Source of the DNA: Raillietiella orientalis
Taxonomy: Eukaryota
DNA: 64,000 nucleotides
NCBI GenBank assembly: GCA_036172245.1
Contig: JAYWIR010000053.1
Coordinates: forward strand, 124,001-188,000
Direction: 5' to 3'
Shown here one piece after another: positions 22,441 through 64,000 of the stretch. The notes beneath the pieces were generated by a model, which was not told the origin of the DNA, searched no databases, and worked only from the letters and a program-made list of their open reading frames with translations. The position numbers were made by a program, and so were the translations under genes. Positions within the stretch are counted from its first letter, which is position 1, and every line of letters starts with the position of its first letter.

Positions 22441-22449
22441 CCGCGTCGT

Positions 22450-28100: not shown

Positions 28101-28177
28101 CGGTCAAGAGGAAACTGCTCGCGAAACTCCCGGACGAAGGCATTGAGAAGGACCCAATCGGAGAGACTCTGAAGCGT
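25160..28177 (-). mobile_element. LINE family A copy A2, 3' piece (linker, RT, zinc finger, 3' UTR)
   Basis: WRPIIIVNTD, RQGDSLGP, AYADD and CARCGVRESLPHLIVDC, with a hairpin terminus at 25161-25187. Confidence 0.88.
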
Positions 28178-34523: not shown

Positions 34524-34538
34524 GGGGATTCGGCGTTG

Positions 34539-36644
34539 CCACCCGGGTACGCCCGAGGCATTAATTCGTAAAAAACACTACAATTGCGGTATTGGGCCCC
34601 GCCTCACGGCCTTATGCACGGGATCTACCGGGACGCCGGGACGCAGCCCGGCGTGGCACTCCCCGACAGCGAAGGGGGATGGGGATAAGACAAAAAGTTA
34701 AATAAAAAGAAACAAACAAAAAGAAGTTGGAGGGCAGGGAAGGGATCACTGTTCGCTGTGGAGAGGGCCCATTTGTCGAACGAAGCCCTCGAGGTCAGTC
34801 TGCATATTCCACAGTTGGGGCCATCCGGCAGCTCTTCGCAAGAAGCGTTGGGCATATGGGATGACATCCCTCGCGTGTTGACCCACTCCTTCCTTGTTGG
34901 TGTCGCTCCATGCCGCCACGATGCCTCGGACGCAGCACAAGGCTGCAAGGGCTGCGGCTGTCTGCAGGGCGTCCTTCACGAAGAGGGGCCGAAGAACGTC
35001 TCTAGGGGAACTGCCCGTTGGGAGACCGAGGATCGTCCCAAACAGTTTCCAAAGGGGACGAAGGCAAGCACAGTCCACAATGAGGTGGGAGAGCGATTCC
35101 CGCTCTCCGCACCTGACACACGCAGGATCCAGAACTCCTCTTGTCCAGTGAGAGCGGCGTGCGTTGCCGGGTAAACCCCAATGCAACAACAACAACGGCG
35201 ACTCTTTCCACTTAAGGGGCAGGATCCTGGATTCCTGAAGAAGCGGGGGCCACTTCAGCACAACCATAGGGATGGCCAGCAGCTCGCCCCATCTTCTTAG
35301 TCCTCGCGGCTGGACGCTCGGAGTCGTGGCGTCTGCCAGCTCTCCTGTTGTCCAGCCGCTGATCAACTTTTCGCGTCCCTCGATGCAGCAGGAGACTTGC
35401 CACCTTGGCGTCCGGGTGCTGTGAAGTGCCCTCCTTAGGAAGGGCAGCGCCGTAGCTAGGCAGGTCGTCTCTGTCCACGTGCATCTTGCTGGATTCTCCA
35501 GGAGATTCCGCAGCGTGCAGCGGGCGTAGGGGCTGCATCGGAGACGATTCTACGTCTCCTGGCTTCTCTGGTTAACTACTGCCCACGTTCCAATATTCTC
35601 CTCCAGCCAGGCGGGGGAGTTGGCGGGGCAGGAAACCATCCAGCTGTTCTCTTTGGCCAATGTTGCCATGCGCCCGAGCAGTAGGCCACATCTTCGCATC
35701 TTCCGGCCACGGCTGAGAAGAAAAGACGCGAGTCCATCGCACCGGGACACACGGCTGGCCAGGAGGCGGGCCGGAGTGCACCAAGGGGTGCTCCATATCT
35801 TCGCTGCGATGGCGAGGGTTCGCCACCGCAGCTGCTTCTCCACGCGCTCCAGCATCAGGAGGCCAAGACCGCCGTCCCGACGCGGAGCGCACAAGTCCTT
35901 CAGGTGGACTCGGGGCCTCCCCTTGCCCCAAAGGGCGATACGGAGGAAGTCCTTCATCCTCTTCTTGGATTCCATGGTGGGGGGGCAAACAAAAAGCAAG
36001 GGGCGGAGGATGGGGGCCGCGAAGGCGTTCCAAACCGCGATCCGTTCCGGCAAGTGAAACTTGCCTTCCAGGAACGGGCCGATCGCCGTCTCGACTTTTT
36101 GGAGGCAGCTGGACCACGCTTCCGCAGGGGAGTAGTCCCCCAGTGGCACACCAAGGTACTAGAAGCACCTCGCCGTGGGGATCCCCAGACGTTCCCAGTC
36201 CTGCTGCCCTGCCCACGCCGCACCTATTGGCACAACCGACGACTTTGCCCTGTTAACCTGCAGTCCGGTCCCGCTGCTGAGCAGATCGAAGAAGTCTCCG
36301 ACCGCCTTTGCCGGAGTGGACATTGGCAACAAAAGCAGAAGATCGCCAACGTATGCTGCTACGGAGGGCGTGCCGGGGCACGAGCTCGGCAATGGGGCCA
36401 AAGTCACCCTGTACGCTCTCAGCACCAACTCAAAGTAGGTGCTGAAGAGCAGGGGGCTGAGGCTATCTCCCTGCCCTATGCCCCGCTGCACCGGCACGCC
36501 ATACACCTTTTGACCGCTGAAAGAGACGGTAATTATCGCATTCCGCCAGCAAGAGCGCAAGTAGGAAATCAGGGAGGGTGGAAAGCCCATGCGACCCAGG
36601 AGCTCCAAGAGAAGTTCCTGGTCTACACAGTCCAACGCCTTGTG
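34539..36644 (-). mobile_element. LINE family A copy A1, 3' piece (RT from HKALDC to 3' end)
   Basis: HKALDCVDQ, GQGDSLSP, mutated YVGD, zinc finger and hairpin terminus. Confidence 0.88.
36631..36644 (+). repeat. Left TSD of element B (TCCAACGCCTTGTG)
   Basis: Matches TCGAACGCCTTGTG at 42213-42226 at 13 of 14 positions. Confidence 0.9.
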
Positions 36645-36655
36645 CGCTCTAGGGT

Positions 36656-36677
36656 GGACGTGTTTTCTCGGTGCTCC
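36656..36677 (+). promoter_or_regulatory. Conserved 5' motif GGACGTG...GCTCC, candidate internal promoter (representative copy)
   Basis: Recurs near the 5' end of nine copies. Promoter function is inferred. Confidence 0.55.
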
Positions 36678-36739
36678 TCGTACCAGGAAGTCTCCCTTTG
36701 TGCAAGCGTCGTGTATTTCGGTGGTCGATAAGGCAGCGA

Positions 36740-38400
36740 TGCGTGACGCGACCACCAGGGATGGCCAGGGGGCAGCGGCAACGCCGCCCCCAGAAACGAT
36801 GGAGAGCCAGCGGGCGGCGGCAACGTCGCCCCCAGAGGCGATGGAGGTGGGGGCATCCGCCCCCACAGAATCGGTCTCCGGTGCAGCGCTGGCGTGGAGC
36901 GCCGTTGTGTCGGCGCCATCGCCTGCAGCCCCGGCGGAATATTCGGCCTATGTAGAGGAGGGCTACAACCCCTCATTGTTCTACAAGGTAGGCAATTTAT
37001 ATTCTTTAGAGAGCGCGCGCGCCTTCTCGAAGGGCATGCGCGCTCTCGATGTGAAAGAGGAGGAGCTCAGCGCTATGACCATCCGCAGCGGGGGTCAGTA
37101 CGTTGAGGTCATCTGCAAACATGCAGAGCTGGCCCAACGACTGCTTAAAACCCCCGTTGTGATGGGGACGCGCAGGCTTCTCCCCACTACGGCGGACCGC
37201 AGCATGGCGGTCCACCTGTTAGGCGTGACCGCGCGAATGCGCAAAGAACAGGTTCGCGCTGCTTTGGAACAGTTTGGAACGGTCCACGCGCAGTGGACGA
37301 AAGTTAGTCCTTTCGAGGACTACACAAGGCTGCAACACGGCCTCACTGCTGCGCGCGTGACTGTTCGGGAGGGCTGCACTCTTCCCCACAAACTGGTGGT
37401 CGAAGGCGAAACCGTCGACCTCTGGTATGTGGGGAAGCCGAAATACTGTGGCTTCTGCAATACGTCGGGCCACCTCAAAAAGAGGTGTCCCAATGTGCAG
37501 TGCCAAGTATGCGGCACAATGGGCCACACGAGGGAGGTGTGCCCAAAAGCAGCAGTGCGGGTGGTTTCCAAGAGAAACCTTAAAAAACGCGCCCGGCTTC
37601 TGCAGAAAAGACTGGCGGCGAAAGCTGCCGCGAAGGCTGTGCCACCCGCCCCCAAGACCCAGGCCGCACCCGAGACCCCGGCGACCAACGCCGAAAAAGT
37701 TGAGTGAGCCGGCCAGCAGACTGAGTGGCAAGTGGCAACAGCCAAAAAATCAAAGAAGGAGAGGAGGATGGGAAAGAAAATCGCCTACCAACAGAAGAAG
37801 TAAGAGCAGGGTAGCGCGATAATTAAAGAGTGCAGGGTCGTTGTCGAACGCGTTCTCGATGTTGCCGAACGCTGCCGGAAAGAAATCGCCGCTACCGACG
37901 ACCTCCCCTCTGTTGACACAGTCAACAGCGAGGGGAGCGAGCCGGCGGCGTCGTCCCTCATCGACACCACCATCGATGACGTAGCCTTCGCGCGAGCCGC
38001 GGAGGAGCTGGCAGCCTCGTTGCAGCCAGAACCCTCCAAGGCTGGCAAGAAGGCCGTAAGGCGTCCGGCCTCCCCTCAGGAGTCCCCCACTTCCGACCCC
38101 GAGGTGGAGGCCGGAAGCGCAGCCTCCGTTTCTACGGCACCGCGCAAGAAGGCTGGACGTAAGTCCACAAAGCCAAGGAAGCTCGTCTCCCCCGTCGAAG
38201 GGGAAGAGATGGCTTCCGCAAGCGAGGGTGCCATGAGCGTGGGAAACTCTCGGGACCCGTCGCCCGAGAGACTCCCACGCACGGACACGGAGGGGATGGA
38301 GGAGGTGGAGGCCGAACAGGTGCCTCAGGTGCCTGAGAAGGCCGAAACCCCCATGGACATCCCGCCCCCCTCGCAAGAGGAGGGCTCCCCCACACCTTAA
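36740..38400 (+). pseudogene. B ORF1 (zinc-knuckle protein), internal stops
   Basis: CGFCNTSGHLKKRC and CQVCGTMGHTREVC, with a 42-bp tandem duplication (AATPPPE.ME) at about 36772-36846. Confidence 0.85.
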
Positions 38401-38414
38401 TCTTCCCAGCAGTA

Positions 38415-41400
38415 ATGCCGGGAATCTCCTCCCGCCGTCGTCTGCGCATCGCCGTTTGGAACGTGAACGGCATGACAGACGCCGGCAGGAGACGAGACAT
38501 GGCCGTTCTTCTGGAGTCCTACGACCTTGCGCTGCTGCAGGAGATCCACGTGATCTCTGCAGAACAAGCGCAAGAGATCGAACGGATCTCCGGAGGGCGG
38601 CTATGGTACAGGTGTGGGAGAGCGAAAAGTTGCGGTGTCGCCTACCTGCTCCGGCCAGCCGTCGAGGCCGCGGCTCGGGGCGTGCGGTTCGACGATCACG
38701 GTCGTGTCGGCCAGCTGAATCTCAGGTGGTCCGACTCCATCGATCTGATCGTCACGAACGTGTACGCACCGAGCGGCAAGGACCTGATAAACAGGAAGGC
38801 GAGGAAAGAGTTTTCCTTGCGCTCCGGCGAGACTGGCTGACCGAAGCAGGCGTGCGGAATGCCCATCTGGTTGCAGGCGATTTCAACGTTCGCCTGAAAC
38901 CAGATGAGCAGAATCCCGAGCGTGACCTGGTCAACGAGGTGTGCATGGCGGTGCACACCTGTAATCTGTTGGCCAGTGCACCGGGGATGGAAGAAAGCAT
39001 TGACCACGTGTTTCTTGACGAGCACCTGTGCCGTCGCGTGGGCAGGCGCGGCAAGTTACCGTGCAAGCTGTCCGACCATCGCCCGCTAGTCCTCGAGATC
39101 CATCCGCGCGACAGGGGCCCCCCCTCGTCAGCGTGGCGTCTCCCAATGGACTGGCTGAAGCTCCCGGACGCGACGGAACATCTCCGCACGTTCATACGGA
39201 GCTTCAGTCTGCGGACACTTTAGGATTGGGACCGCTTCAAGCGGTCGGTCCAGGAGTTCTGCGACCAGTTCCCTCTGCACCGCCTACCCACGGGTTTTGG
39301 GACCAGGGTCCGTAACGAACGAGCCTACCTGCAGGCCCGTCGTTACGCCAGGACCCCCGACATCCACAGGCTGGCGGAATACAAAGCGGGAGCCGAGAGG
39401 CAAGCCTGGCAGTCCGGATCGGCCAGCTTGCTGGACGATCAGGGCCAGGAGCACTCGGCACCTGCCCAAATCCGCGTCCTGCTGCGGAGTTACTACTCCT
39501 CCCTGTATGCAGAACACCTCCGGAGAGTAACGTCTCACGACTCCTACTTCCGGAAGGCGCTGCAGCGATCGGGGAGGAGCAGAGAAAGACCCTCGACGAG
39601 CCTTTCACGATGGACGAGATCCTCTCGGCCATCGGAAAGCTCAAGAGGCGAAAGGCTCCAGAGGAGGACGGCCTGCCCGCGGAGTTCTATTAAACTTTCG
39701 CGGCTGAGCTTACTCTTCTGGTACAGCAACTCACCTTGCTGATACGCGAAACAGGTGACGTTCCCGCCTCTTTTCGTTCGGCAAAGGTGCGGCTCCTCCC
39801 TAAGGGAGGAGATCTGAGGAGCATGAACAACTGGCGTCCCATCACAATAGTGAATGCGGACGCCAAGCTGGTGGCTAAGGTTTGGGCAGAGCGTCTGGGA
39901 CGGGTTGCCAACATCGCCATCAGCCCGGAACAGACATATGCTGTTCCCGGGCGAAGCATGGAGGCGAACCTTTTCCTCGATTCCACCTGGCTAGAGCTCC
40001 AACATGAAAGGAGCTTGGTGCGCAGCCGGAATTATGGTGCGTGCGCCGGCAAGGGGTAGGATGGTCGGGTGGGGGAGGGAGCCCTTGCGGTCGCAATCGA
40101 CTTGCGAAAAGCATTCGATTGCGTCGACCAGAATCTCCTTCTGGAGCTTCTGGAACGCTTGGGATTCACGGCATCATTAGTGGCCTATCTGCGCTCCTGC
40201 TGGCGCGACGCGCTCATCAATGTTACCTTCAGCGTGCAGACCGTGCACGGAGTGCCGGTGCGGCGTGGGATCGGGCAGGGAGGCAGCCTGAGCCCCTTGC
40301 TCTTCAGTACCTACTTTGAGTCTGTACTGAGAGCGTACAGGGGAACTCTGGCGCACCTGCCGCACGACTGTACCGGTACGCCGGCCGTTTCAGCATACGC
40401 GGACGACCTTCTGCTGCTGCTCCCTATGTCCACCCCGGCTGCGGCGGTCGAGAAGTTCTTCGACCTGCTGCATCGGGGAACCGGACTTACGGTGAACAGG
40501 GCGAAGTCGTCCGTGATGCCAGTTGGTGCGGCGTGGGTAGTGCAGCAGGACTGGGTCCGTTTGGGGATCCCCACGGTGAGGTGCTTCAAGTACCTCGGTG
40601 TGCCGTTGGGGGACTACTCCCCTGCGGAAGCGTGGTCCGGCTGCCTTCAAAAAGTAGACACGGCGATCGGCCCGTTCCGAGGCGGCAGGATTTTCCTGCC
40701 TGAACGGGCCGCGGTTTGGAACACGTTCGCGGCTCCTCTCCTCCGCCCCCTGCTTTTTGTTTGCCCCCCCACAGAGAGGATTAAAAAGCGGACAAAGAAC
40801 CTCCTCCGTATCGTCCTTTGGGGCAACGGGAGGGCCCGAGTCCGCTTAAAGGACTTGTGCGCTCCTCGTCGGGATGGTGGACTGGGCCTCCTGACGCTGG
40901 AGCGGCTAAAGCTTCAGCTACAGTTCCGCTTGTCGGCACTCGTTCCAGAGTTGTGGTGCACCTGTTGGTGCGTCCCTACACGTCTCCTCCAGCAAGCCAC
41001 CGGCAAGACGGGACTGACGTCGTATCTTGCACTCCGTTGCCGCGTCAACCGATGCGGACTCCAGCTACGGAGGGTGGCTGCGCTGTATCGGAAAAACCAA
41101 GGATTGCTCACCTGTCGCCCGTTTAACGGTAGTGCCTGGTTGCAGGAAACCGTTCGAACGTGAAGACGGTTCGGCATGCAACGCTCCCAACAGGAACGAA
41201 GGTTCCTGTTTGGGGGTTACAGAAGTTGCACGCTCCGCAGGATCCTGGAGGATCCAAAGAAGAGAGCGTGGGCAGGAAGAACCCCCCTCGCTGCTGCGCT
41301 GCCCTCCCTGATGGAAGATCTGGACAGCGATGTTGCGGAGAAGTGGGTGGTTACAGTAACAATCTCGGGAAAGGAGAAGAAGATAGGAGAGTGGAAGACG

Positions 41401-41990
41401 GGGCAGTTAACAGACTCTGCGACCCCGAGTACGCCTCCCAATGGACTTCTGCGCTGGGGCGCGCTGCTCGATGTTCCCATTGAACATCTGAAGTAGCCCC
41501 CGGTGCTCATGAACACTTCCGCCCTCCCCTTAAAATGGCAGGAGTCGGCTCTCCTGTTGCAGCACTAAGGACTCCCCTGCAAAGCCCGCCGACACCACTG
41601 GACCTGGGGAGCGGTGGACCCCTATTGCGTCAGGTGTGGGGAACGGAAGTCCCTCCCCCACCTGCTAGTGGATTGTGTTGCCCTTCGGCCCCTTTGGTTT
41701 CGCTTTGCCGCGGCCATCGGAATGCCCTGCCGCAACCCCAGGGAAGCACTGAAAGCCCTCTTTGTTGCCCACGCCCTTCGTCCATTGGCCTCGTCAGCAG
41801 CTTTGTACTGCCTTCGCGGGATCGTCACCGCTTGGAGCAAGGCTACGGGAGGATAACGCGACTAGGGTGTTAACCAGCCAGCCTCCCAGTCTCTGAGGAG
41901 GGTGTCCCGATAGCCCCACCTGGATCCAGGAATACAGAAGGAGCTTGCCGGCATCCTCCAAAGGATGCAACGGCCCCACCAGCAACTGTG
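38415..41990 (+). pseudogene. B ORF2 (EN-RT-zinc finger), disrupted
   Basis: VWNVNG, AGDFN, LSDH, WRPITIVNAD, DLRKAFD, SAYADD and CVRCGE..H..C. Confidence 0.88.
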
Positions 41991-42181
41991 ATCCCTTCCC
42001 TTACGCTCACAACTTTTCTCTTCTTTTTTTGTTTTGTTTTTTTTGTTTTTCCCCCTTCCCCCTGCTGCCGTGGTGGACCGTACCGGTCTGCGAACCGGTG
42101 ACCCGGCAGGCTCTGTGTTTCTTCGTGCGTGGCCGGAGCAATGGTCCAGCCACCGCACGTCTTTGTAAAAGTTTATTTTAC

Positions 42182-42212
42182 AATAAACGCCCCGGCGAAA
42201 TCCGGGTGAAAA
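42182..42212 (+). terminator. 3' terminal AATAAA + GC hairpin (representative copy)
   Basis: AATAAACGCCCCGGCGAAATCCGGGTGAAAA. Variants occur at 14 element ends. Confidence 0.7.
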
Positions 42213-45058
42213 TCGAACGCCTTGTGGAGATCGACTGCGAGCGCTAGGGCCCCCTTCCCCGCCCGGGGGTCCCTTCCCAACCCGGCTGGCGGCCCCAATG
42301 TGGGGTTGCCGACTTTCCCTATCCCTTTCTTCTCTCTTCTCTGCAGGTGCACCCATGTGCTTGCGAAGAAGAGGTTGGCATCCATACTTCGCCCGGGAAC
42401 AGCATAAGTCTGCTCCGGGCTAATTACGGATTCTGCCACCTGCCCCAGACGCGAAGCCCATAGCCCTGCGATCAACTTGGCGTCCGTATTCACGATCGTG
42501 ATCGGACGCCAGTTCTCTAAATCCCTGAGGTCTCCCCCTTTCGGCAGGAGCCTCACTCTGGCTGACCGAAACGAGGAGAACACATCGCCTTCGTCTCGGA
42601 TCAGCCTGATCAACTTAAGCAGCAGGGGTGCCAGCTCTTCCGCGAAGCTCTGAAAGAACTCCGTGGGCAAGCCGTCTTGTTCTGGAGCTTTACGCCTCTT
42701 GAGCCTTTTGATACCGGCGAGAATTTCGCCGGTGGTAAAAGGCTCGTCGAGGCTTTCCATCTCCTCCTCCCCTATTGCCGGGGCGCCATCCGGAAGCAAG
42801 CGCCGAGAGGCGTCTCGATCCGGAGGCTCCCTGGCGTAAAGGGAGGAGTAGAAACTCCGCACGAGATGCCGTACCGACGCCGGGGACGAACATTCCCGGC
42901 CCTGGACGTCCAGCAAGGTGGCCGACCCGGATTGCCAGGCTTGGCGTTCGGCCCCGGCGCGGTACTCGGCCAGGCGACGGAAATTAGGGGTTCTCTCGTA
43001 CCTACGAGCCTGTAAGTAGGCCCGATGGTTGCGAGCACCCTCGCCGAATCCGGGGGGCAGGCGATCCAGGGGGAACTGCTCACAGAACTCGCGGACCGAT
43101 TCCTTAAAAACGTCCCAGTCCTGGAGATTCCGGAGCGTGACACCTCTCAGGTATTCGCGAAGGTATTCCTTCGCACCTGAGAGTCGCGTCCAGTCCCCCG
43201 GCAGACGCCAATCCCTGGATGGCGGTCCCTTGTCACGAGGCCGCATCTCGAAAATTAACCGGGAATGGTCCGACAACGTCGACGCACCCCTCCCCCGTTT
43301 GCCGACCCGTGAACACAGGTCAGCGTCGAGGAAGACGTGGTCGATGCTGCGGACCATTCCCCTCTCACCCGCGAACAAGTTGCGCGCAAGCATGGCGGCG
43401 CACAACTCGTTCATCGCGTTCTCTTGTGTTTCTGGCTCACCTGTTAGCAGACGGAGATTGAAATCTCCCGCTATCAGATGAGCCTTCCGCACGTTCGTGT
43501 CCGCCAGCCAGTCGCGCTTCAGGGAATCCATCAGCCTGGTACGGTCGCTGTATCCCTGTTTACCGCTGGGGGCGTACACATTCGTGACGATCAATTCGAT
43601 CGAGTCCGACCAGCTGAGAATCAGCTGACCGACCCGACCGTCGTCATCGAAGCGCACGCCCTTCACGGCCACGTCGATGGCCGGCTTCACGAAGAACGCG
43701 ACCCCGCAGGTGTTGCGGAGGCCGCACCGCCAATACAGCCGACCCTCCGCGATCGTCTCGATCTCCTGGGCTTCTGCCGCGATGATCACGTGGATCTCCT
43801 GCAGCAAGGCCAGGTCGAGCTCACGCAGGGTGTCGGCCGTATCTCGCCTGTTACCGTCGTCGCGCAGCCCGTTGACGTTCCAACAGGCGGCGCGAATCCG
43901 ACGGCGACTGGCGAGCCCAGGTGTTATTCCTGGGAAGATGGCGATGCGGCGTCCGCCACCTGTTGGGGCGGGACGCTAGGTGGAGGAGGAGGGTCAGGCG
44001 CTGCGTGCACCTGGTCCCCCTCCTCCATGGGTAACGGCGCGTCGAGCGGGTCACCCTTAGATGGGGTCGCGCCTACATGTTGGCCCTCCTCCATGGGGGC
44101 GGGATGTTCAGGCTCGGCGACTGCAGATAGGACTTCGCCCCCCTGCTCACCCTCCTCCATGGGGGTGGCCGGCTCGACGGCTTCCGAGCGTGGGAGTTCC
44201 CTCTCCTGGATTCCCACGCTACCGCTACCTTCCTGCTTCTCCTCCTCGCTGGTGGAGGGGAGGCGCCTCCTGGGTTTCTGGGACTTGCGTCCCGACTTCA
44301 TGGGGGGTGCCTCCGAGGAGGAGGATGCACTTCCGGCCCTTAGGTCCGACTCACCTGTGGGGGCCTTTTTCGCGGGAGCCGGCCTTCGCACGGCCTTGCG
44401 TGAGGGGTTCTCACGCTCCGCAAGCGTGGCCGCGAGCTCCTCCGCCGCCTGAGCGAACGCGACGTCCTCGGCTTCGACCGTCGCTATTTCGCGCGGCTCA
44501 CCCTCTGTGTAAACAGAGGGTTCGCCGTCGCGAAACTCGGGCGCGGCGGAAACGGCGAGGGAAGGCTCGTCGCCCCGGGTGGCAATCTCGGGAACGGCTA
44601 TGCGCTCCAGTGCTAGCGTACACTTCCGCATGGTCTTAGAGCGCCGCCCAGGTTTTTTCGCCTTGCCGGCTGTCTTTTTTACCGCTTTAGCGGGTTCCGC
44701 GGGGTGCACCTTTTTCTCCTTCCTGGCCTTGACCAGCTGCCAGCCGTCTTGGACTCCCGCGTCTTCGGCGGGTTTTTCTTCCGACGCCTGTGTGGGAGGA
44801 ACAGGGGCTAGCGGCTGCTGCCGGCCAGTATCGCTTTTTGGTCTTTCGACCAGTTTACCGCGTTTTGCCTGTGCTTTCTTTGCAGCAGGCGGCACCGGAG
44901 TGGGGCGTTTAGGGCATACGCGGCGTACGTGGCCCTTCTCCCCGCATAAGTGGCACACAATGTTCGGGCACCGCTTGCGCAAGTGTCCTACTGCATTGCA
45001 GTGGCCACAAAAGCGGGGTTTCCCCACGTACCAGAGGTCTACGACTTCGCCATTGATC
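42213..45058 (-). mobile_element. LINE family A copy A1, 5' piece (ORF1 from knuckles, ORF2 EN to KAFD)
   Basis: ORF 42173-43807 is open up to AVDLHKAFD. ORF1 has WYVGKPRFCGHC and three PMEEG repeats. Confidence 0.9.
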
Positions 45059-49962: not shown

Positions 49963-49976
49963 GGCGGCGGGTTGTT

Positions 49977-51671: not shown

Positions 51672-54222
51672 GTGCACCGCGCAGTCACGCGCTACTACTC
51701 CTCGTTGGACGCGGAGGAGCCCACGGAACGCAGTCTCTCCGAGCTGCTCCTTCCGACGGGCAACCCTGCAATCGACGAGGAGGAACGCGCCAGATTGGAT
51801 TGGCTTTTCACGGCGGAAGAAGTATCTTTTGCCATAGCGGGCCTGAAAAGGCGTAAGGCGCCTGGGGAAGATGGCCTGCCCGCGGAGTTTTTTCAGTGCT
51901 TCGCGGCGGAGCTCGTCCCCCTGGTGCTAAGCCTTTCCTCGCTGATGCGTGAGACAGGAGATGTTCCCGCTTCTTTCCGCTCAGCAAAGGTGCGGCTCCT
52001 GCCGAAAGGCGGTGATTTGCGCCACCTCAGTAACTGGCGTCCGATCACATTGGTGAATTCGGACGTCAAGTTGTTCTCCAGGCTATGGGTCGCGCGCCTG
52101 GGGAGAATCGCAGAGTCCTTGGTAAGTCCGGAGCAGACGTATGCTGTTTCGGGGCGGTCCATGGACGCGAATCTCTTCTTCGCGCGAACATGGTTCGAGT
52201 TGCAGCAGCGCGTGGCGCAGCAGAGCCAAGCAGCCGAAATCGCCGCTGCCAAAGGAAAGCGGCGGTGTTCAATGCACGATTGAACGCCTGGAGCCTTAGC
52301 GGTCGCCGTCGATCTCTGCAAAGCGTTCGACAGCGTAAATCAGGACCTCCTTCTAGAGCCTCTGGGACGCCTAGGGCTCCCGACGCACCTCATCGCCTAC
52401 TTGCGCTCCTGCTGGCGCTACGCGTTATGCTGTATCTCTTTCAGCGGGCGTCACGTGTACGGTGTTTCCATACGGCGGAGTATCAGGCAGAGAGTCAGAT
52501 TAAGCCCCCTGCTCTTCAGCATCTTCTTTGAGTTGGTTCTGAGGGCGTACAGGCTGACGCTGTCCAACCTGCCGAGCTCCTGCCCGGGAACAGCGGCCGT
52601 GGCCGCCTATGCTGACGACCTTCTCCTGCTGCTGCCCATGTCCACCCCGGCGTTCCCTTGTGCGCCTTCTGTCCAGCAGAAGCGTGGTCGGGCTGCCTTC
52701 ACAAGGCAGACTGCTCTGGGCCCGCTCCAAGGCGGCAGGTTTCTCCTGTCGGAACGGGCCTTCGTGTGGAACATTTTCGTTGCCACCCTCCTCCGTCCCC
52801 TCTTTTTTGTTTGTCCCCCTCCATACTCGGCTGAGCGCCGGGCGCAACGCCTGTTGCGTAACGCCCTGTGGGGACCGGAGAGGTCCAGGATACGCCGGAA
52901 GGACTTGGCGTCTCCTCGGCGGGATGCAGGTTTGGGCATCCTGACGCTGGAGCCGATCGAACTGCTAGTGCAGTTCCGCATGCTGGCACTTTGTGCGCAG
53001 CTCTGGACTACTCCCTGGTGTGCTGCAGCGCGGCTGCTGCTGCGACGCAGCACGGGTGGCGACGGACTACGTTCGTTGCATTTGCGCACGGAGCGCGCCC
53101 AGAGAGCATTCGGCTTCCCTTTGAAACAGCTCGCCACGCTTCTGGGAAAGCATGAGTGGATCTCCTGCCGGCAGACGAACTTCAACGCCTGGAGGCAGGA
53201 AGCCTTATCGTCCTGGGAAGCGCAACAGGATGTGTCGCGTTTGGAACTCCGTTGCGTGAAACTTTCCTCATACTGTCCAGTGGGGGAGGTGCTGGAAGAC
53301 CAGGACCAGTGGACACTCCTATTCGCTACGGCACTCGCCGCAGCACTGTGTGCACTGATGGTGCCAGATGACAGTGACCTGCCGGCGAGGTGGGAGATCA
53401 CTAGCGAAATCGCAGGCGAAACCCGACTGCTGGGCGGCTGGCGGACTTGCGAAGTGGCAGACGCTGCCACAGCTCGCATTCTTGCTAAGGGGCTTCTCCG
53501 GTGGAGTGAGCTCCTCGGGGTGCCCACCGATGAACTTGTGGTCCCTTCTGCGTGTTTGGACGCGACTCTCTTCCCCCTTCGGTGGAAGAAGGACGCTTTT
53601 CTGCTGGTGCATTTGGGTTTGTACTGCAACCAGAGGGCGCACCTGATTTCCGGGGGAGTTGCGTCCTCGAACTGTGCCAAATGCGGAGCGGTGGAATCGC
53701 TTCCGCATTTGCTGTTGGAGTGCGGTGCCCTCCAGGAGCTGTGGCAGCGGCTGTTTTCAGCGGTCCTGCATCCTGGACACACCGCACTGGATTGGATGCG
53801 CCGCTTCTACTCGCGTGGCGAACTTTGTCTTGGAGCGTTCGACGCAATCATCTGCTGCGTCCGCGCCATTGTCAGAGCCCGCTACGTATTGCAGATGCGG
53901 GCAGTCTCAACATCGGTCCCCGACACCGTAGCCTGCAACCTGCAAATGGCTGCCGGGTGGCCACATCTTGGAGCAAAAGTGAGGATGGAGATCGGCGGCT
54001 TTCACCGCCGGTTCTAAGAACAGGAACGATTAGACTGTATACCTCTATCCCCGCCCTCCCACCCAGTTTATTTATTTATTGTCCCACCCCATCCGGTTCC
54101 GAACTCTCAGTGTGTCCGGACTGCGTTCCGGGAAATCTACTCCCCATTTTCTGTTCATCTTGCCTCGGAAAACAGTTCTCAGTTGATATCATAATAAACG
54201 TTTTGGCGCAACCAAGTAATAA
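51672..54222 (+). mobile_element. LINE family D copy D, 3' piece (RT to 3' end)
   Basis: Resumes at VHRAVTRYYSSL exactly where 18358 stops. Has AYADD, CAKCGAVESLPHLLLEC and a degenerate hairpin end, followed by ACGACAAC. Confidence 0.85.
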
Positions 54223-55416
54223 ACGACAACGCTGCATTCTTTAATTTGCTCGCTTGCCTGCTGTTTTTTCTGGCGGTACGCGAGCTTTTTGTCCATCCTC
54301 CTCTCCTTCTTTGGTTTTTGGCTGTAGCCAACTGCCACCCAGGCTCCTGGCTTGTTCCCTCGACTTGTTCGGCGTTGTTCGCCGGGATCTCGGGTGCGGC
54401 CTGGGCCTTGGGCGCGGGTGGCACAGCCTTGGCGGCATCTTTCGCCGCCAGCCTTCTCTGCAGAAGCCATGCACGTTTTTAAAGGTATCTCTAGGAAAGC
54501 ACCCGCACTGCTGCTTTAGGGCACACCTCCCTCGTGTGTCTCATGGTTGCGCATACTTGGCACTGCACATTAAGACACCTCTTTTTGATGTGGCCCGACG
54601 TATTGCAGAAGCCACATTATTTCGGTTTCCCCACATACCAGAGGTCGACGGTTTCGCCTTCGACCACCAGTTTGTGAAGAAGAGTGCAGTTCTCATAAAC
54701 GGTCACGCGCGCAGCAGTAAGGCCGTGCTGCAGCCCCGTGTAGTCCTAGAAAGGACTAACTTTCGTCCACTGCGCGTGGACCGTTCCAAATTTTCTAGCG
54801 CGGCGCGAACCTGTTCCTTGCGCATTCGCGCGGTACCACCTAACAGGTGGACCACCATGCTGCGGTCCGCCGTAATAGGGAGGAGCCTGCGCGTCCTTAT
54901 CACCACGGGGGTTTGAAGCTGTCGCTGGGCCAGCTCTGCTTGTTTGCAGATGACCTCAACGTACTGACCCCCGCTGCGGATGGTCATAGCGCTGAGCTCC
55001 TCCTCTTTCACCTCGAGAGCGCGCATGCCCTTCGAAAAGGCGCGCGCGTTCTCTAAAGAATATAAATTGCTTACTTTGTAGAACAATGAGGGGTTGTACT
55101 TCTCCTCTACATACTCCGACAATTCCGCCGCGGCTGCAGGCGATGGCGCCGACACAACGGCGCCCCACGCCCGCGCTGCAGGGGGACCGATTCTGTGGGG
55201 GCGCATGCCCCCACTTCCATCGCCTCCGGGGGCGACGTTGCCGCCTCCCCCTGGCTCTCCATCGCCTCTGGGGGTGGCGTTGCCGCTGCTTCCTGGCCGT
55301 CACTGGTGTTCGCGTCATGGATCGCTGCCTGATCGACCACCGAACCACACGACGCTTGCACTGGGGGAGACTTCCTGGCATGAGGAGCATCGAGAAAACA
55401 CGTCCACACTAGAGCA
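54223..55416 (-). mobile_element. LINE family B copy B', 5' piece (5' UTR + ORF1)
   Basis: Colinear with 36645-37845. Starts TGCTCTAGTGTGGACGTGTTTT. Confidence 0.9.
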
Positions 55417-57470
55417 CGCAAAGCGTTCGACTGCGTGACTCAGGATCTCCACCTGAAGCTCCTGGTACGCCTCGGTCTGCCGGTGAACCTCGTGGCCTCT
55501 TTGCGCGCCTGCTGGCGGCATTCGCTCAATTTTATTTCTTTTAGCAGCTGCCACGTGTACGGCGTGCCGGTGTGCCAGGGCGTCAGGCAAGGTAAAAGCT
55601 TAAGCCCATTGCCCTCTAGAATCTTCTTTGAGTTGGTGCAGAAGGCGTACAGGCTGACGCTGTATAACCTGGAGAGCTTTTGTCCAGAACGCCGTCCGCG
55701 GCTTTCTATGCTGACGGTCTTCTTCTCCTTTTACCCATGTCTTCCAGTCTCGCGGACTTCTTCGAGGTGATTCGCCGGGGACTGGGCGTAAGCGTAAACC
55801 GGAGCAAGAGCGTGGTCGTTCCTATTGGTACGGCGTGGGAGGGGCAGTCCTTCTGGATCCACCTGGGGATCGCGACTGCTTTCTCCATTTTATATCTAGG
55901 CGTTCCACTGGGGAACATCAGCTTAGTGGAAGTGTAGTGGGACGTTTTCGGAAGGCTACGAGTGCACTGCGCCCGTTCTGCCATGGCAGGTTCGGGCCGC
56001 GATATGGAACACTTTCGTTGCCCTCCTCTTGCGCTTCCTGTTTTTTCTTTGCCCGCCATCAGACTCGGCGAAGCTTCAGGCGCACACCCTGTTGACGAAT
56101 GGACTGTGGGATCCTGCGCGGTCCAGGTTCCGCCTGAAAGTCTTGGCGGCTCCGCGTCGGGATGCTAGCTTAGGCATCCTGACGCTGGGGAGAATCGAAC
56201 TGCTGGTGCAGCTTCGGATGTTGGCCCTGTGCGCCAACCTTTGTTTCACCACGTGGTGCGCTCCTGCGCGCCTGCTCCTGCGGCAATGTACCGGCAGCAA
56301 TGAACTTCTGTCGCTGCGACCGCACACGTAGCGCTCCACGAGTAGCTTCGGTTTCCCGTTTGAACCACTCTACCGGCATTTGGCAGCCCAATCATGGATC
56401 TCCTGCCGTTCAACGAACTCTGATTCCTGGTGGCAAAAACCGTTGCATGGCTGGGAAAAGCACCAGGGTGTTTCTCTCCTGGATCTTCGTTGCATTCACC
56501 TCTTCCCGTACTGCTCGGTGGATGAGGAGTTCAACAGCCAGGAGAAGTGTACTCGCCTGGCCGTCACGCCCCTCGCCGACGCGCTGTCAGCCCTCAGAGC
56601 AAGAGATGACAGCTGCGAACCGGCGAGATGGGAGGTCGCCTGCACCGTCGTAGGAAGAACACGACCTATTGGCGGCTGTAGGACTTGCGAGCTGGCAGAC
56701 GCCGCAACGCCTCCCCACATCCCGAAGGGACTATTTCGATGGAGTTAACTCTTGAGTGTGGCCCCCGAAGAACTTGTGGTCCCTCCCTTCTATATAAACA
56801 CTTCTGTGTTCTCCCTTTAGTGGAAGCAGTACGTCATCATACTGCTGCATTGGGGTTTTCACTCCAACCAGCGGACGAACCTTGTTTCCGGAAGAGTTGT
56901 CTCCCCAAACTGTAAGCGGTACGAAGAAGTGGAAACACTCCCGCACCTGCTACTGGACTGCGGTGCTCTCCTAGGAGAGTGGCGGAGGCTGGCCTCAGCT
57001 CTTCTGCACCAGGGGGACACCACGAGAGACTTGATGCGCCGCTTCTTTACGCCAGGCGTCTTTGGGTAATGTCGTTGCAACCGTGTGTTGCACCCGCGCC
57101 ATCCAAAAGGCTCACCGAGAGTTGGAGACGCTGGCCAACCTTCGTCAGCACACCGGATTAGCCAGCACAAGCATGTCGTCGGCTGCCGAGTGGGCTCAAC
57201 TGCCACAGGACGTAAGGAGAGAGATCGCCGGCATCCATCGCTGGTTTTGAAAGAAAGGAACGGCGTTACCAAAGTCCGCTGTCTCCGGCCCTTCATATTT
57301 TCATTTTTTTTATAGTAGTGTATTTGTGGTCCCCTCTCTTCCTTTCCGTACTTTTGGCATACCGACCTGCGTGTCTGGGATCTCACCCCCTTCGTCTCTT
57401 GTTTTTTAATTTTTCCAAGAACTCTGTACCTTGATAGTTTCTTAATAAACGCCTTGGCGCACCCGGGTGA
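55417..57470 (+). mobile_element. LINE family D copy D3, 3' piece starting at RKAFDC
   Basis: RKAFDCVTQD, degenerate RT and zinc finger. Terminus AATAAACGCCTTGGCGCACCCGGGTGA. Confidence 0.85.
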
Positions 57471-57473
57471 TGA

Positions 57474-59498
57474 ACAGTTCGTACCCCGCGATGGTCTCGT
57501 TCTCCTGGACCTCTGCCGCGGTGTTAACGTGGATCTCTCGAAGCAGGCTCAGGTCGAGTTCACGCAGGGTGTCGGCCGTATCTCGCCTGTTACCTTGGTC
57601 GCGCAGCCCGTTGACATTCCGCGACGACTGTCGAGCCCAGGTGCTACTCCTGGAAAAGTTGCAGTACGGCGTCCGTCACCTGCTGGGGCGGGATGCTATG
57701 TGGAGGAGGAGGGTTATGTGCTCAAGGCACCTGGTCCCCCTCCTCCATGGGTAACGGCTCGTCGAGCGGGTCACACGCAGTTGGGGTCGCGCCTACCGGT
57801 TGGCTCTCCTCCATGGGGGCGGGCTGTTCAGGGTCGGCGCCTGCAGGAAGGACTTCACCCACCTGCTCACCCTCCTCCATGGGGTGGCCAGCTCGACGGC
57901 TTCCGAGCGTGGGAGTTCCCCCTCCGGGAATCTCACGCTTCCGCTACCTTTCTGCTTCTCCTCCTCTCTGGTGGAGGGCAGGCGCCTCCTGGGCTTCTGG
58001 GGCTAGCGTCCCGACTTCCTGGTGGGCGCCTCCGCGGAGGAGGACGAACTTCGGTCCCCCAGGTCGCATTCACCTGCAGGGGCCTTCTTTGCTGGAGCCG
58101 GCCTTTGCACGGCCTTGCGCGGGAAGTTCTCACGCTCCTCCGGCGTGGCCGCGAGCTCCTCCGCCGCCTGCGCGTAGGCAGCGTCCTCGCCGGCGGCGAG
58201 CGCTTCGCGAGGCCAACCCTCTGTTTGCACAGAGGGTTCGCCGTCGCGAACCTCGGGCGCGCCAGAAACGGCGAGGGGAGGCTCGTCGCTCCGGGTGGCA
58301 GCCTCGGGAGCGATGACGAGTTTCGGTGCTAGCTAGCACTCGCGGAAAGTTTTCGATCGCGTACAGGGTTTCTTTGTTTTCGCGATCTTCTTTTTCCCTG
58401 CTTTCTCCGGTTCTTCGTTGGAACCCTTCCTCTCTTTTCTGGCTTTTACAACCTGCCAGCCTACTTAACCTTCTTATGCTTGGTACGGTTGTTCCTCCGA
58501 ATTTTGCGCCGGAGGTTGAGGTGCTGGCAGCTTCTCCCGTCCACTTTCTGCCTTCGGTCTTGCGACCTTTAATGCGCGTTTCCCCTGCGCTTTTTTGGCG
58601 GCAGGAGGAAGCGGGGTGGGGCGCTTGGGGCACACGCACCGAACGTGACCTCGTTCTTCGCACAGGTAGTACTATATGTTCGGATACCTTTTGCGTAGGT
58701 GTCCTACTGTGTTACAGTGCCCACAGTAGCGTGGTTTTCCCACGTATCAGAGGTCTACGGCTTCCTGGGAGAACTCGAGCTTGTGAGGTAGCGCTCTACC
58801 CTCCTTCACGGTGACACACGCTGCGGCCTGGCCCCCGAAAACGCTATTGTAGCCCTCAAAAATAGAAGCTTTAGGCCTCAGCTCGTGAACCTCTCCGAAT
58901 TTTTTCAATTCCTCACCAACCGCAGACCACATCATGCGGCTGGTGATGCCGGTCCGATGCACCACTACGGAGCGGTCCATCGTGACTGGTAGGATCTTGC
59001 GCCCATCCCTGTCCAGCGGGGTGGTGATCAGACTTTGCGTCAAGTAATTTCCTTACAGACAACCTGGACCCGCTGACCCCCGCTAAGCACGGAGAGGCCG
59101 TCACGATCCTTTGCTAAAAATATTGGCGTTCTGCAGCGCTTTCGTGAAGGCGCGTGCAGTTCGCCCTTAGAAAAGCTTGCCTTCCTGGTAGAGTAGCGAA
59201 GGTTCATAACCCGCTATCTTGTAGGCTTCCATCTCGGTCATGGCTTTCGCGCTAGGCGCGGCACCCATGGCTCTCCAACTCCTCGCCTTGCGCGGAGAGG
59301 GCGATTCCGGGGATGATGGCCCTGTTCCATTTGGCTGTGGGGGAGTACTAGCCTCCCCCACGCTTACATTAAGCGCAGTGTTCTCTGGCATCGTCGCCAT
59401 CGGACACCGGCGATGTGTGAAAACACGAATACTAGCAAAGAAACTCTCTCCAAGCCTGGCTGACGAAGCGTGAAAAAAACACGTCTGTACTCGACGAG
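57474..59498 (-). mobile_element. LINE family A copy A4, 5' piece (5' UTR, ORF1, first codons of EN)
   Basis: AGACGTGTTTTTTTCACGCTTC 5' motif. ORF1 is homologous to 33251-34449 and 43924-45058. Confidence 0.85.
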
Positions 59499-60006
59499 TG
59501 GAATCTGGGGACCGGGTCCGCAACGAAAATTCGTATTTGTATGCCCGTGGTTACGCGAAGAAATCAACGTACGTCGCTTGGCAGAATACCGCGTCGAGAC
59601 AGAGAGCGAAGCCTGGCAATCCGGGTCGGCCAGCTTGCTGGACGACCAGTGCCGGGAACACATATCCCCGGCGTCGGTACGGAATCTCCTGTTGTGCTAT
59701 TATTCCTCCCTTTATGCGAGACCCCCCCGGTACGAGACGATTTTTGGCGCTTGCTTCCAGATGCTGCCCTTGTAATAGGGGAGGAGGAGAAGTTGAGCTC
59801 CGACGAGCCTTCTACACCGGCAAAATTCTCGCCGGTAACCAAAGGCTCAAGAGGCGTTAAGCTCCTAGGGAGGACGGCTTGACCGCAAATTTTCTCCAGT
59901 GCTTAGCGGAAGAACTGGCACTTTCGGTGCTTCAGTTGACAAGACTGATACGAGACGAAGACTTTGGGCAGCCAAGATAAACCACAGGAGCAACGAAACG
60001 TTGATG
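59499..60006 (+). mobile_element. Degenerate LINE ORF2 fragment J (linker, then deletion to C-terminal region)
   Basis: VRNENSYL, WQSGSASLLDDQ and AEELA, then WAAKINHRSNETL. Confidence 0.75.
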
Positions 60007-61430: not shown

Positions 61431-61539
61431 TCTCTTGTCCTTCAAGATCAGCGTTGTGTAGAAGAAGTTTATTGATGGATACTTCGACATATCCGGTTGT
61501 TAGACATCGTTTGGGGTTGAGCATTTCCAGCTCTTCTCG

Positions 61540-61840
61540 TAGGGCGGGCACTCTGTCCTGCACTACCAGATTTGGCGCTCAGCGCTTGCCTTTCACTCTG
61601 CAAGATGCTCGACGTCAACGATTCTGGAAACGGTCACCGTCTGCAGAAATTCTCAATTGTTAGCTACGACTTCCCCGGATCCGCGTGGAAGGCGATGCAA
61701 AGAGAACCGGCTGCAGAGCTCTCCGACAAGTCTTTTGAAATGGTCACTGTGCGAATGTTTTTTGATTTCGAAGTCGCAAAGACGCTGACAAAGATGTTCA
61801 GCAGCTTCCCAATAGCTATGCAATCCCTTTATAAGCTCCT
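61540..61840 (-). mobile_element. Degenerate family D-like ORF2 linker fragment
   Basis: EAAEHL..RFSLHRLPRGSGEVVAN. Confidence 0.6.
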
Positions 61841-61844
61841 GTTG

Positions 61845-63413
61845 TTTTACGGGAGATGTCCAGGAAATCGAAAGAATCGCGGGAGGGCGGCTACTGTGGA
61901 GGAACGGAACGGACAACTCCTGCGGAGTGGCCTTTCTGCTAAAGCCTGCTGTCGACAACGCACTGCGCAGCGTCAGGTTGGACGAGGACGGTAGAGTTGG
62001 GCAGCTTGCGTTCAAGTGGACCGACTTGATCGATTTCGTGGTGACGAACCTGTACGCTCCGGTGAGCAGCCACAGGGCCGAGGAACGCATTGCGTTCTTC
62101 CAATCCCTGCGGTGAGACTGGTTGGCTGAAGCAAGCGTACGGCGGGCGCACCTCATCGCGGGCGACTTCAATCTCCGCCTGCTTGCAGGTGCTCCCAGCA
62201 GTCGAGCACAACTAGTCAACGAGCTGTGCGCAGCAATGAATGCGCGCAACTTGTTGGCCGGTGATGCCAAGAGAGATCGGAACATCGACCACATGTTCCT
62301 CGACAACCACCTGTGCACGCGGGTGGGAACTCGAGGAACGCTCCCGGCAGAGCTGTCCGACCATCCACGGCTCGTGCTCGAGTTGCATCCGCGGAATGAG
62401 GGCCCTCCCTTGAAGACGTGGCGCCTCCCAGGGGACTGGATGCGCCTCGCAGGAGCGGCGGAACATCTACGCGCGTTCCTGCGAGTATTCCATCTTGAGA
62501 CGCTCGCGGACTGGGACGAAATGAAGTGCTCAGTCCGCGAGTTTTGCGACCAGTTTCCCCTGGAACGTCTGCCGCCGAGCTTCGGCAATGGGGTCAGGAA
62601 CGAACGGGCCTACCTTCAGGCCCGCTGGTATTCCAGGCGTCCCGACGTCCGGCGCTTGGCGGAATTCAAAGCTGAGGCGGAGAGGCAGGCCTGGCAGTCA
62701 GGCTCGGCCTGCTTGCTACACCATCAGGGCCAATAGCGCTTCAGCCCAACTCAGGTATGCCGCATCGTGCGGAAGTTCTATTCCTCCTTGTACGCGCCAC
62801 TAACACCGGAGCGCCATTTCGCGCGGCAAGTGCTGCAGGATGGCCTCCCCGCACTCAAGGAGGAGGATCGTTTCACGTTGGCAGAACCGTTCACGATGGT
62901 GGAGGTTGTCTCCGCCATCAGCAGGCTCAAGAATAGGAAGGCACAAGGAGAGGACGGCCTGCCCGCGGAGTTTTACAAACACTTCGCGGCAGAGCTGGCC
63001 CTTCCGGTGCTCAGGTTGAGTACGCTGATCCGCGAACACGGCGAAGTTCCCGCCTCGTTCCGGTCAGCAAAAGTACGTCTCCTGCCGAAATCAGGAGACT
63101 TACGCAACATTGGCAACTGGCGTCCCATCACAGAAGTGAATGCGGACGCAAAGCTGTATGCCAAGTATTGGGCTGAGCGCTTGGGGCGGGTGGCCGCTTC
63201 CGTGATCAGTCCGGAGCAGACCTATGCTGTTCCCGGACGAAGCATCGAGTCAAACCTGCTTCTCGCCAGCACATGGTGGCAGTTGCGACAACGCGTTGCC
63301 CAGAAAGGTCAAGGGAGTCTTGCGCTCCCCTCTGACGAAAAACATCGGATAGAGGGTGGGAGGGACTCGGCGGGAGCCTTTGCAGTCGCGGTCGACTTGG
63401 GCAAAGCATTCGA
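61845..63413 (+). mobile_element. LINE family C copy C3, ORF2 EN to KAFD
   Basis: Colinear with C1 ORF2 and ends at AVDLGKAFD. Confidence 0.9.
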
Positions 63414-64000
63414 TTTTCATCCGGATTTCTCCAAGTCGTTTATTAAAAAAATAAACGACGTAAACAAATTATTAATGGCTGTGGCAATGCTCCAGCCAGA
63501 AGCTAAGAACCACGGCGCCTGCCAATTCACCGGTTTCTAGACCGGTACCGTCCACCAAGGCAGCAGGGGAAAGGGGAAAAACAAAAAAAAACCAAAAAAA
63601 AAAAACAAAGGGTGGGAGGGAACGGGAAGGGTTCACTGTTGCTGCTGGGGCTGCATCATTCCTCTCAGGAGGCTGGCAAGCTCTTGTTTGTTGCGAACAT
63701 CCAGGTGGGCCATCGCGACGTTCTCCTCAGGAATTCGGAGGCGCACTGGATGGCTTCCTGATCGCTAGGTCCTCCCTTCGCCGTGCTCCAGGCGGCGACG
63801 ATCCCACGAAGGCAGCACAAGGCTGCTATCGAGGACGCTGGCCGCAGGGCGTCGGCAACGAAGAAGGCTTTTAGTGCGTCCCTGGGGTTGCTGCAAGGGA
63901 TATTGATGGCCGCGTCAAAGCGGAATTAAAAGGGCCGAAGGGCAACACAATCCACTAGGAGGTGGGGGAGGGAATCACGTTCCCGCACCTTACACAATTG
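63414..64000 (-). mobile_element. LINE family B copy B3, 3' end (extends beyond window)
   Basis: 3' UTR and ORF2 tail are homologous to 41620-42212. Terminus AATAAACGACTTGGAGAAATCCGGATGAAAA. Confidence 0.88.

Follow-up and report, generated by a model that had tools for sequence, protein, structure and literature searches.

Site-specific long interspersed nuclear elements (LINEs) survive by homing to conserved multicopy sequences, i.e., ribosomal DNA, small nuclear RNA and transfer RNA genes, telomeres, and one DNA transposon. R1, R2, TRAS, and SART all have a conserved multicopy target, in which nucleotide and orientation of the insertion are fixed; their 3' ends are defined and lack long poly(A), and many copies are full length. 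Tx1L resides in the DNA transposon Tx1D. Here we describe a 64-kb stretch of DNA from Raillietiella orientalis (contig JAYWIR010000053.1, positions 124,001 to 188,000; hereafter the window) with several copies of a LINE family that we call B. We consider it likely that B is a sequence-specific, target-primed LINE with an endonuclease of the apurinic/apyrimidinic endonuclease (APE) type and that its target is the DNA encoding the KAFD motif in the reverse transcriptase (RT) of other LINE families.

Kojima & Jurka (2015, PMC4640811) name, in the available portion, Tx1 and R1 as the clades that encode APE and are sequence-specific, and "transposons" appear among the target classes they list. Tx1L, Keno, Mutsu, and Dewa are, as far as this portion of the source goes, APE-type LINEs that, as B probably does, integrate with strict sequence specificity into multicopy sequences. 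The target of B differs from theirs in being a protein-coding catalytic motif of autonomous LINEs that is hit in three diverged host families, rather than one DNA transposon or RNA gene. With R1, R2, TRAS, and SART, B shares the fixed insertion nucleotide and orientation, but the targets of those elements are host genes or repeats, whereas the "host gene" of B is the RT of another parasite. R2 moreover uses a restriction-like endonuclease, unlike the APE type of B.

A second group of relevant systems are nested LINE clusters. Zepp forms one cluster of nested elements per chromosome according to the accessible part of its description (Blanc et al. 2012, PMC3446292), and the available portions of the literature on Zepp in Coccomyxa and Chlorella and on ZeppL in Chlamydomonas portray clusters made up nearly entirely of nested LINE copies (PMC8226300, PMC3446292), as is our window. 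Like the Zepp clusters, the window is tiled by LINEs only and contains stacked 3' fragments (60.0-61.5 kb) and three head-to-tail joints, a likeness in cluster architecture. However, these same portions of the Zepp and ZeppL descriptions name no target nucleotide or motif, whereas the window holds several families that seem to have sites of their own and insert in antisense. Cnl1 of Cryptococcus, as characterized in the available part of the source, nests in tandem and in sense orientation into its own family at subtelomeres (PMC9942834), while B inserts in antisense into an RT-coding motif of other families.

Insertions of family B in KAFD codons

Related LINEs without long terminal repeats make up the window, nested into one another, and their fragments and full copies tile both strands throughout. 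As a coordinate ruler for the second open reading frame (ORF2) we used the intact 1064-aa ORF2 of the element C1 (46768-49959, minus strand), in which KAFD occupies residues 590-593. At the protein level, the targeted RT motif reads (V)DLxKAFDCV in the related LINE families; 11 RT copies in the window cover it, 3 of them occupied by an insertion and 8 unoccupied (Table 1).

A preliminary description of this DNA had reported three antisense B copies at the same nucleotide of this motif, and sequence inspection and tblastn found all three junctions as reported, in the hosts A1, D3, and C3. The full-length copy, with the 5' terminal motif CGCTCTAGGGTGGACGTG and a 3' untranslated region (UTR) that finishes in ...AATAAACGCCCCGGCGAAATCCGGGTGAAAA, indeed splits A1 with a 14-bp target-site duplication (TSD) whose left and right copies agree at 13/14 bases, and the two A1 halves, as delimited by tblastn with the C1 ORF2, overlap by the duplicated HKAFD. 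In the left TSD copy, position 36633 is G in 5/5 contigs of a sequencing run that cover it. The second copy, B', is visible with its 5' end (gctctagtgtggacgtg on the minus strand), which stops at 55415/55416 and adjoins the KAFD codons of D3. The host sequence that follows reads cgcaaagcgttcga/ctgcgtg (55417-55430), with the same 14-nt distance to TTCGA^C as in A1, just as had been claimed. At the third copy, B3, the host C3 runs with ...ggcaaagcattcga up to 63413 (residue 593) and is followed by ttttcatccggatttc, which read on the opposite strand is GAAATCCGGATGAAAA, the 3' end of the B type; the break matches that at 42212/42213. B3 aligns to B up to the last base, and the termini of B, B', and B3 match base for base (terminal motifs GCTCTAGNGTGGACGTG at the 5' end and GAAATCCGGRTGAAAA at the 3' end).

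Taken together, the 3 insertions expose four B-family termini (two 5', two 3'), and 4/4 lie at the same nucleotide and in antisense to the host. Host-sense ...AAR-GCR-TTC-GA runs without any gap into the 3' end of B (...CCGGGTGAAAA), and the 5' end of B meets the host 14 nt upstream, which gives the 14-bp TSD. This stagger is constant between the complete copy and the same 14-nt register at the second 5' junction (n=2 5' junctions). Each B insertion physically splits a host RT ORF.

Are these three events or one? The cluster is visibly rearranged, with head-to-tail tandems that are 92-93% identical and nesting orders that are not all simple, and the junctions in D3 and C3 are complementary, one showing a 5' end and the other a 3' end. 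Such features would suit a single ancestral B insertion multiplied through segmental duplication, recombination, or gene conversion, with junctions identical by descent, a scenario that the preliminary description had itself raised. Yet flank matrices place A1 nearest to A2 (0.89-0.91), C3 nearest to C1 (0.90), and D3 nearest to an element called F (0.70), while A1, C, and D are mutually only 0.61-0.73 alike, in agreement with the earlier assignment of the hosts to three different families. Both A2 and C1 are uninterrupted at the site, and the interrupted hosts A1 and C3 are closer to these intact relatives than to the other hosts, and each was therefore retrotransposed from an intact master and hit by B later. 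Compared in B orientation, the junctions in A1 and D3 share 0.39-0.66 identity per 100 nt over 1.4 kb of host flank, and identity then jumps at the junction to 0.86-0.98 and stays there over 1.1 kb of B. Finally, the amino-acid identity to C1 is 86% for C3 but 37% for D3, so the complementary junctions cannot be two halves of one host or one event. Since the hosts represent three families, identity switches sharply at the junction, and A1 and C3 have uninterrupted paralogs, the three B insertions are, judged by sequence, independent, and the contrast between flanks and inserts speaks so clearly against copying that we regard descent from one insertion as extremely unlikely.

If insertions fell at random, the chance that two further ones hit the homologous base and strand would be ~(10/128000)^2, i.e., ~6e-9 by simple arithmetic with 11 RT copies, and coincidence is thus negligible. 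This number also bears on regional or chromatin targeting without nucleotide specificity, for which the KAFD coincidence would be due to chance or a local hot spot. The entire window is LINE sequence, and the available parts of the sources on Zepp, ZeppL, and Cnl1 describe nesting into copies already present but mention no particular site (PMC8226300, PMC3446292, PMC9942834), as a regional preference would have it. Against this stand three events at one base, on one strand, and in one 14-nt register despite 10 alternative RT sites, as well as other families that recur at different sites of their own (see below), which regional preference would not predict. We therefore consider this explanation very unlikely.

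In host sense, the occupied sites read CAC-AAG-GCG-TTC-GA^C-TGT-GTA in A1, CGC-AAA-GCG-TTC-GA^C-TGC-GTG in D3, and GGC-AAA-GCA-TTC-GA^ in C3, of which only the upstream half is visible and the rest lies outside the window. Sites that fit AARGCRTTCGA^CTGYGT (A1, D3, C3, and C1) are occupied in 3/4 cases compared to 0/7 for deviating sites (Fisher's exact p = 0.024, in a post hoc comparison that includes the half-visible C3). The 17-nt target pattern has 7 matches in the window at <=2 mismatches, 7/7 of them in RT motifs, compared to 0.04 expected. At its own KAFD site, B deviates from the pattern only at the base right behind the presumed nick, and this GA^T is no more than a hint of self-immunity. 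That B targets the KAFD-coding stretch, the central claim of the preliminary description, is thus supported by three independent antisense insertions at the same nucleotide, the TSD, the second 5' junction in the same register, and the uninterrupted paralogs of two hosts.

In target-primed reverse transcription of L1-type elements, the 3'-OH of a nicked strand primes the complementary DNA (cDNA). A corresponding mechanism for B would begin with its endonuclease nicking the host sense strand at TTCGA^CTG, where A meets C. From the 3'-OH released in this way (host sense ...TTCGA-3'OH), reverse transcription would then start at a fixed point of the B RNA, and the other strand would be cut 14 bp away, before CAC/CGC; these nick positions are suggested by the junction positions and the 14-bp TSD. 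By analogy to R1- and Tx1-type elements (for a general statement, see PMC4640811), we infer the endonuclease itself as the source of specificity. The priming point would be set by a conserved hairpin 3' of AAUAAA and not by poly(A) annealing; the two B-type 3' ends agree exactly in their final TGAAAA. Protein-level conservation of the RT motif would make it a multicopy target that is replenished by active sister families.

This hairpin, with a stem of 5 bp and a loop of 6 nt, is part of a 3' terminal module common to all families of the cluster. It is preceded by AATAAA and followed by a short tail that differs between families and is TGAAAA at the two B-type ends. RNAalifold finds the stem, with 2 pairs kept via C-to-U wobble in 4-5 sequences plus one double change. 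A covariance model built from 11 training ends yielded 16 matches at E <=10, of which 14 are LINE 3' ends (the 11 training ends and 3 new ones) and the remaining 2, with E >1, are probably noise. These features fit a "stringent" LINE in which the RT recognizes a 3' stem-loop and cDNA starts at a fixed base. At the other end of the elements, a terminal motif GGACGTG(Y)TTT...GCTCC is shared by at least 10 element 5' ends, which indicates that full-length insertion is common.

A further alternative would do without a specific endonuclease and attribute the junctions to a fragile site at which the RT switched templates or breaks were repaired through microhomology. The cluster does contain three head-to-tail joints (E2/E1, Cq/C1, and A1/M) that resemble template jumps, a mechanism established in R2 biochemistry. 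At each of them, the 3' end of one element lies against the 5' terminal motif of the next; E1 and E2 are 92% alike across 4.4 kb, and besides template jumps of the RT, tandem duplication would fit the appearance of these joints. However, template jumps yield sense tandems and not antisense insertions within an ORF, the exact B termini are joined to the host with a 14-bp TSD, and neither TGAAAA nor CGCTCTAG has microhomology with the target. We thus judge such an origin of the B junctions exceedingly improbable.

Table 1. Coordinates of elements, junctions, and target sites in the window. Residues are numbered along the C1 ORF2; ^ marks the break or nick.
Feature	Position	Strand	Description
B, full-length copy	36645..42212	+	5568 bp; ORF1, linker, APE+RT ORF2
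TSD, left copy	36631..36644		14 bp; tccaacgccttgtg; 1 base off right copy
TSD, right copy	42213..42226		14 bp; tcgaacgccttgtg; antisense of CAC-AAG-GCG-TTC-GA (HKAFD)
3' terminal module of B	42163..42212	+	AATAAA, 5-bp stem (YYYGG / CCGGG), 6-nt loop, short family-specific tail
B', 5' 1.2 kb of second B copy	54224..55416	-	88.4% identical to B positions 2-1202
B3, 3' part of third B-family copy	63414..64000	-	75.8% identical to B positions 4980-5568; leaves window
B4, internal B fragment	14538..15256	-	B nt 1216-1934, 97.5% identical; no terminus visible
k, nearest sister family of B	28178-33246		74.6% identical overall, 0.82-0.85 around motif
Host A1, 3' half	34524..36644	-	ORF2 residues 589-1064 and 3' UTR
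Host A1, 5' half	42213..45054	-	ORF1 end, linker, ORF2 residues 12-593
Host D3	55417..57477	+	ORF2 from residue 590 (cgc-aaa-gcg-ttc-ga^c...) to 3' end; own family
Host C3	61852..63413	+	ORF2 residues 73-593; 89.6% identical to C1; ends ...aaagcattcga
A2, paralog of A1	25145..28177	-	85-91% identical; uninterrupted at site ("empty site" control)
C1, paralog of C3	46065..49959	-	intact 1064-aa ORF2; uninterrupted, perfect target unoccupied
C1 site, unoccupied	48176-48192		AAAGCATTCGACTGCGT; reads AAAGCATTCGA^CTGCGT, perfect match
B's own KAFD site, unoccupied	40108..40124	+	AAAGCATTCGA^TTGCGT; 1 mismatch, base just after nick
A2 site, unoccupied	27246-27262		AAGGCATTCTACTGTGT; ...TTCTA^CTGTGT
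F site, unoccupied			...TTTGA^TTGCGT
r and k sites, unoccupied			...GA^CAGCGT
E1 site, unoccupied			...TTCAA^CTCC
E2 site, unoccupied			TAG...TTCGA^CTCC
Host h	21399-21821	+	ends ...FPLHQLPP, ~ORF2 residue 321, then A3 3' end
A3, A-like 3' fragment	21822..22445	-	68-74% identical to A1/A2; antisense in host h
Host I	22446..25144	+	5' end to ORF2 residue 321, ...FPLHRLP
P (A-like 5' part) and host v	57478..60004	P -, v +	P 5' end ~59492; v 59493-60004; abut at ~ORF2 residue 322
G and H	15275..19550	G +, H -	G ORF2 ...AAAEV, residue 380, ends 18358; H 18359 to ~19550
w and H2	61440..61805	w -, H2 +	w 61506-61805, ORF2 residues 274-380 (...TPNDV); H2 ends 61505
N and host r	50793..54222	N -, r +	N 5' end ~51675; r 51676-54222; abut at ORF2 residue ~380/381 (VHRAV...)
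Head-to-tail joint E2/E1	4364-4400		exact 3' end abuts 5' motif
Head-to-tail joint A1/M	34496-34536		8 nt between
Head-to-tail joint Cq/C1	49941-49975		3 nt between
LINE 3' ends	14538, 18359, 21410, 21822, 25145, 34524, 42212, 46065, 49963, 54222, 57477, 60005, 60986, 63414		

Recurrent antisense sites of A-like and H-like families

Recurrent antisense sites are not unique to B but also occur in the A-like and H-like families. The 3' end of the antisense element A2 cuts host I at 25144/25145, and this is the same site at which A3 lies in host h (C1 residues 320-321). A2 and A3 are 68% alike, and their hosts share just a 39-nt match; as diverged copies the two represent independent events, given that A2 is 85-91% like A1, which sits in a different context. 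The same region of ORF2 is also where the A-like element P and host v abut, and residue ~321 is broken in 3/14 copies that cover the position. These junctions point to FPLxxLP/P (ORF2 residue ~321) as a second family-specific target site, used by A-like elements.

A third position is residue ~380, broken in 3/13 copies covering it. There, H lies in antisense and interrupts G with its 3' end at 18359, and w ends against H2, a decayed LINE-like 3' tail (...CATATCCGGTTGTTAGAC) with the H-type loop CATATCCGG. G and w end at the same Val codon, 20 residues past an AERQxW common to G, w, and C1, and the third break at this position separates N from host r. It is probable from these cases that sister families share the site-specific lifestyle of B and that the cluster grows by mutual, site-specific nesting.

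Two of these hosts also touch B copies. The 5' end of G lies against B4 at ~B nt 1216 (the other neighbor of B4 is the 3' end of F), and the 3' end of r, at 54222, adjoins B' and cuts it at ~B nt 1202; CGACAAC is found in both flanks. These junctions may stem from one old insertion that was pulled apart or from a G-like family targeting the B linker. A point against a single separated insertion is that B4 is 97.5% identical to B, compared to 88.4% for B'.

All insertions at recurrent sites (B three times, A2, A3, P, H, H2, and N) are antisense to their host, and their targets all lie in LINE ORF2, with the junctions of G and r in the ORF1-ORF2 linker of B likewise being antisense. This regularity is what would be expected if targeting were guided by homology, with sense LINE RNA pairing to the antisense strand of a sibling LINE (R-loop) and the displaced sense strand being nicked as primer. 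Every insertion would then be antisense and confined to sibling LINE coding sequence, and between B and its hosts nucleotide conservation is indeed highest in the KAFD stretch. Yet the best pairing partner of B, its own copy, is unoccupied, conservation of ORF2 is poor where the A-like and H-like sites are located, and G and w are unlike each other just before the junction. An asymmetric recognition site of a protein would explain the antisense orientation equally well, and we know of no precedent for R-loop guidance. Although it would neatly account for the uniform orientation, we regard this mechanism as quite unlikely.

Site recognition by the endonuclease of each family could account for the cluster as a whole. 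Tentatively, we consider it quite possible that a guild of LINE families, in which each endonuclease homes in antisense to its own fixed site in sibling elements, builds the cluster and drives an arms race with self-immunity. B would home to KAFD codons, A-like elements to residue ~321, H-like elements to residue ~380, and G-like elements to the B linker. A LINE-only, possibly centromere-type island would thus assemble and renew itself without touching host genes, and silent substitutions where the nick falls, of which GA^T in B is an example, would confer self-immunity in this contest of transposon against transposon.

Several observations weigh against a site-specific B and against the wider pattern. 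The support for B comes from three events in a single 64-kb window, and the B copy is frameshifted and defective, so the function of its endonuclease is unreadable from this copy. C1 offers a perfect target but is empty, i.e., the site is not always used, though this is compatible with non-saturating insertion. The 5' end of k, the nearest sister of B, adjoins A2 at host residue ~287 and not at KAFD; k has no recognizable 3' end and hence no informative 3' junction. Regarding the other sites, H2 is without wider homology to H and was missed by the covariance model, which makes the H-like case weaker. The pairs G/r, H/N, and A2/P are moreover complementary halves, each of which could be one old insertion that was later separated, and for this reason only duplicated 3' junctions count as independent.

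Composition of the cluster and searches beyond the window

In the ORF2 of C1, E1, E2, and A1, Pfam recognizes two domains, the APE-type endonuclease Exo_endo_phos and RVT_1, with E-values of 2e-10 and 9e-21, respectively, for C1. The Pfam scan of B took in the RVT_1-bearing ORF only (RVT_1, E 3.7e-16), and the endonuclease part of B is recognized by tblastn homology to C1 ORF2 residues 13-387. By its reading frames the B copy is defective, given that ORF2 is spread over at least 3 of them. Among solved structures, the closest relative is human L1 ORF2p (E 8e-45), which outscores R2 (E 2.6e-14), and we therefore place the cluster elements, on sequence similarity, in the L1/Tx1 superclade only. 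CCHC zinc knuckles in ORF1 are typical of the Tx1 clade but not exclusive to it. In several families of the window, translations upstream of ORF2 show ORF1-like regions with CxxC...H...C strings; the knuckles of B ORF1 are weak, and the zf-CCHC matches in ORF1 of B and E2 are weak and under curated cut-offs. An Rfam search of the window at gathering threshold gave zero matches.

Several further features of the cluster deserve mention. In C1, the family 5' terminal motif is directly followed by the intact 1064-aa ORF2 and ORF1 is absent, so that C1 looks like an ORF1-less variant that is still coding in appearance; N/o' (45055-46034 and 50793-51675) is a C-like relative with ORF1 and linker. 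In E2, the position of the K codon of KAFD is taken by an in-frame TAG (6410-6412, ME*AFDSID), whereas E1 reads AAG (773-775); this is probably a simple mutation. The segment 60005-61505 is AT-richer (GC content 0.46 vs ~0.58 elsewhere) and consists of short LINE 3' tails stacked on both strands, namely J, an element X1 that ends at 60986, and H2. An attempt to resolve the whole window as one simple nest was abandoned, since the intervals H...N (18359-51675) and A2...P (25145-59492) cross and rearrangements or repeated site-specific hits are therefore needed.

Beyond the window, we compared one sequencing run, in which 0.28 of sampled words matched and which gave 414 short contigs (200-360 nt, broken at repeats), 21 of them >=99% alike. 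Contigs of this length are too short to span junctions and gave no usable junction census. One 357-nt contig begins exactly at 42213, an observation that is anecdotal, as are the five contigs with G at 36633. When metagenomes were scanned for the pattern of the B 3' end, 4 loci came up, all of them chance matches in unrelated low-GC sequence without LINE context. When chimeric junction ORFs (KAFD then FHPDF...) were searched with HMMER against 1.84 billion representatives, none of the best 150 of 15874 matches passed query residue 227; the top match, P0016, was rejected because this gene model is unrelated and consists of RT fragments in repetition. A 66-aa junction peptide found no match in a word-index search at near and longer lengths, and a search of the ESM Atlas returned generic RT clusters only. 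Homologs of the C1 ORF2 were found in 15 matches, and the best is a metagenome RT protein that is 64% identical and intact across KAFD.

A LINE that probably targets the RT genes of other LINEs

In our reading, B adds a new class of target to those of site-specific APE LINEs, namely the DNA that encodes the RT motif in other LINE families, though an earlier description in the context of Zepp is possible. Our literature search retrieved no paper that names an RT-coding motif as a LINE target, with the original Zepp descriptions lying outside its reach. If this reading is true, a LINE that uses the catalytic-motif DNA of other LINEs as safe harbor would amount to transposon hyperparasitism. The rationale, already put forward in the preliminary description as a safe harbor combined with disruption of a competitor, is that such a target would be unable to drift at the protein level and would be restocked by competitors, while each hit would inactivate one competitor. 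With a recognition sequence of 14-17 bp, APE-type enzymes might also serve as naturally occurring tools for site-specific insertion.

If several sister families have sites of their own, this would furthermore provide a molecular mechanism for the origin and confinement of LINE-only nested islands. Such islands include the Zepp and ZeppL clusters at green-algal centromeres and the Cnl1 arrays, and what has been a descriptive observation would thereby become testable.

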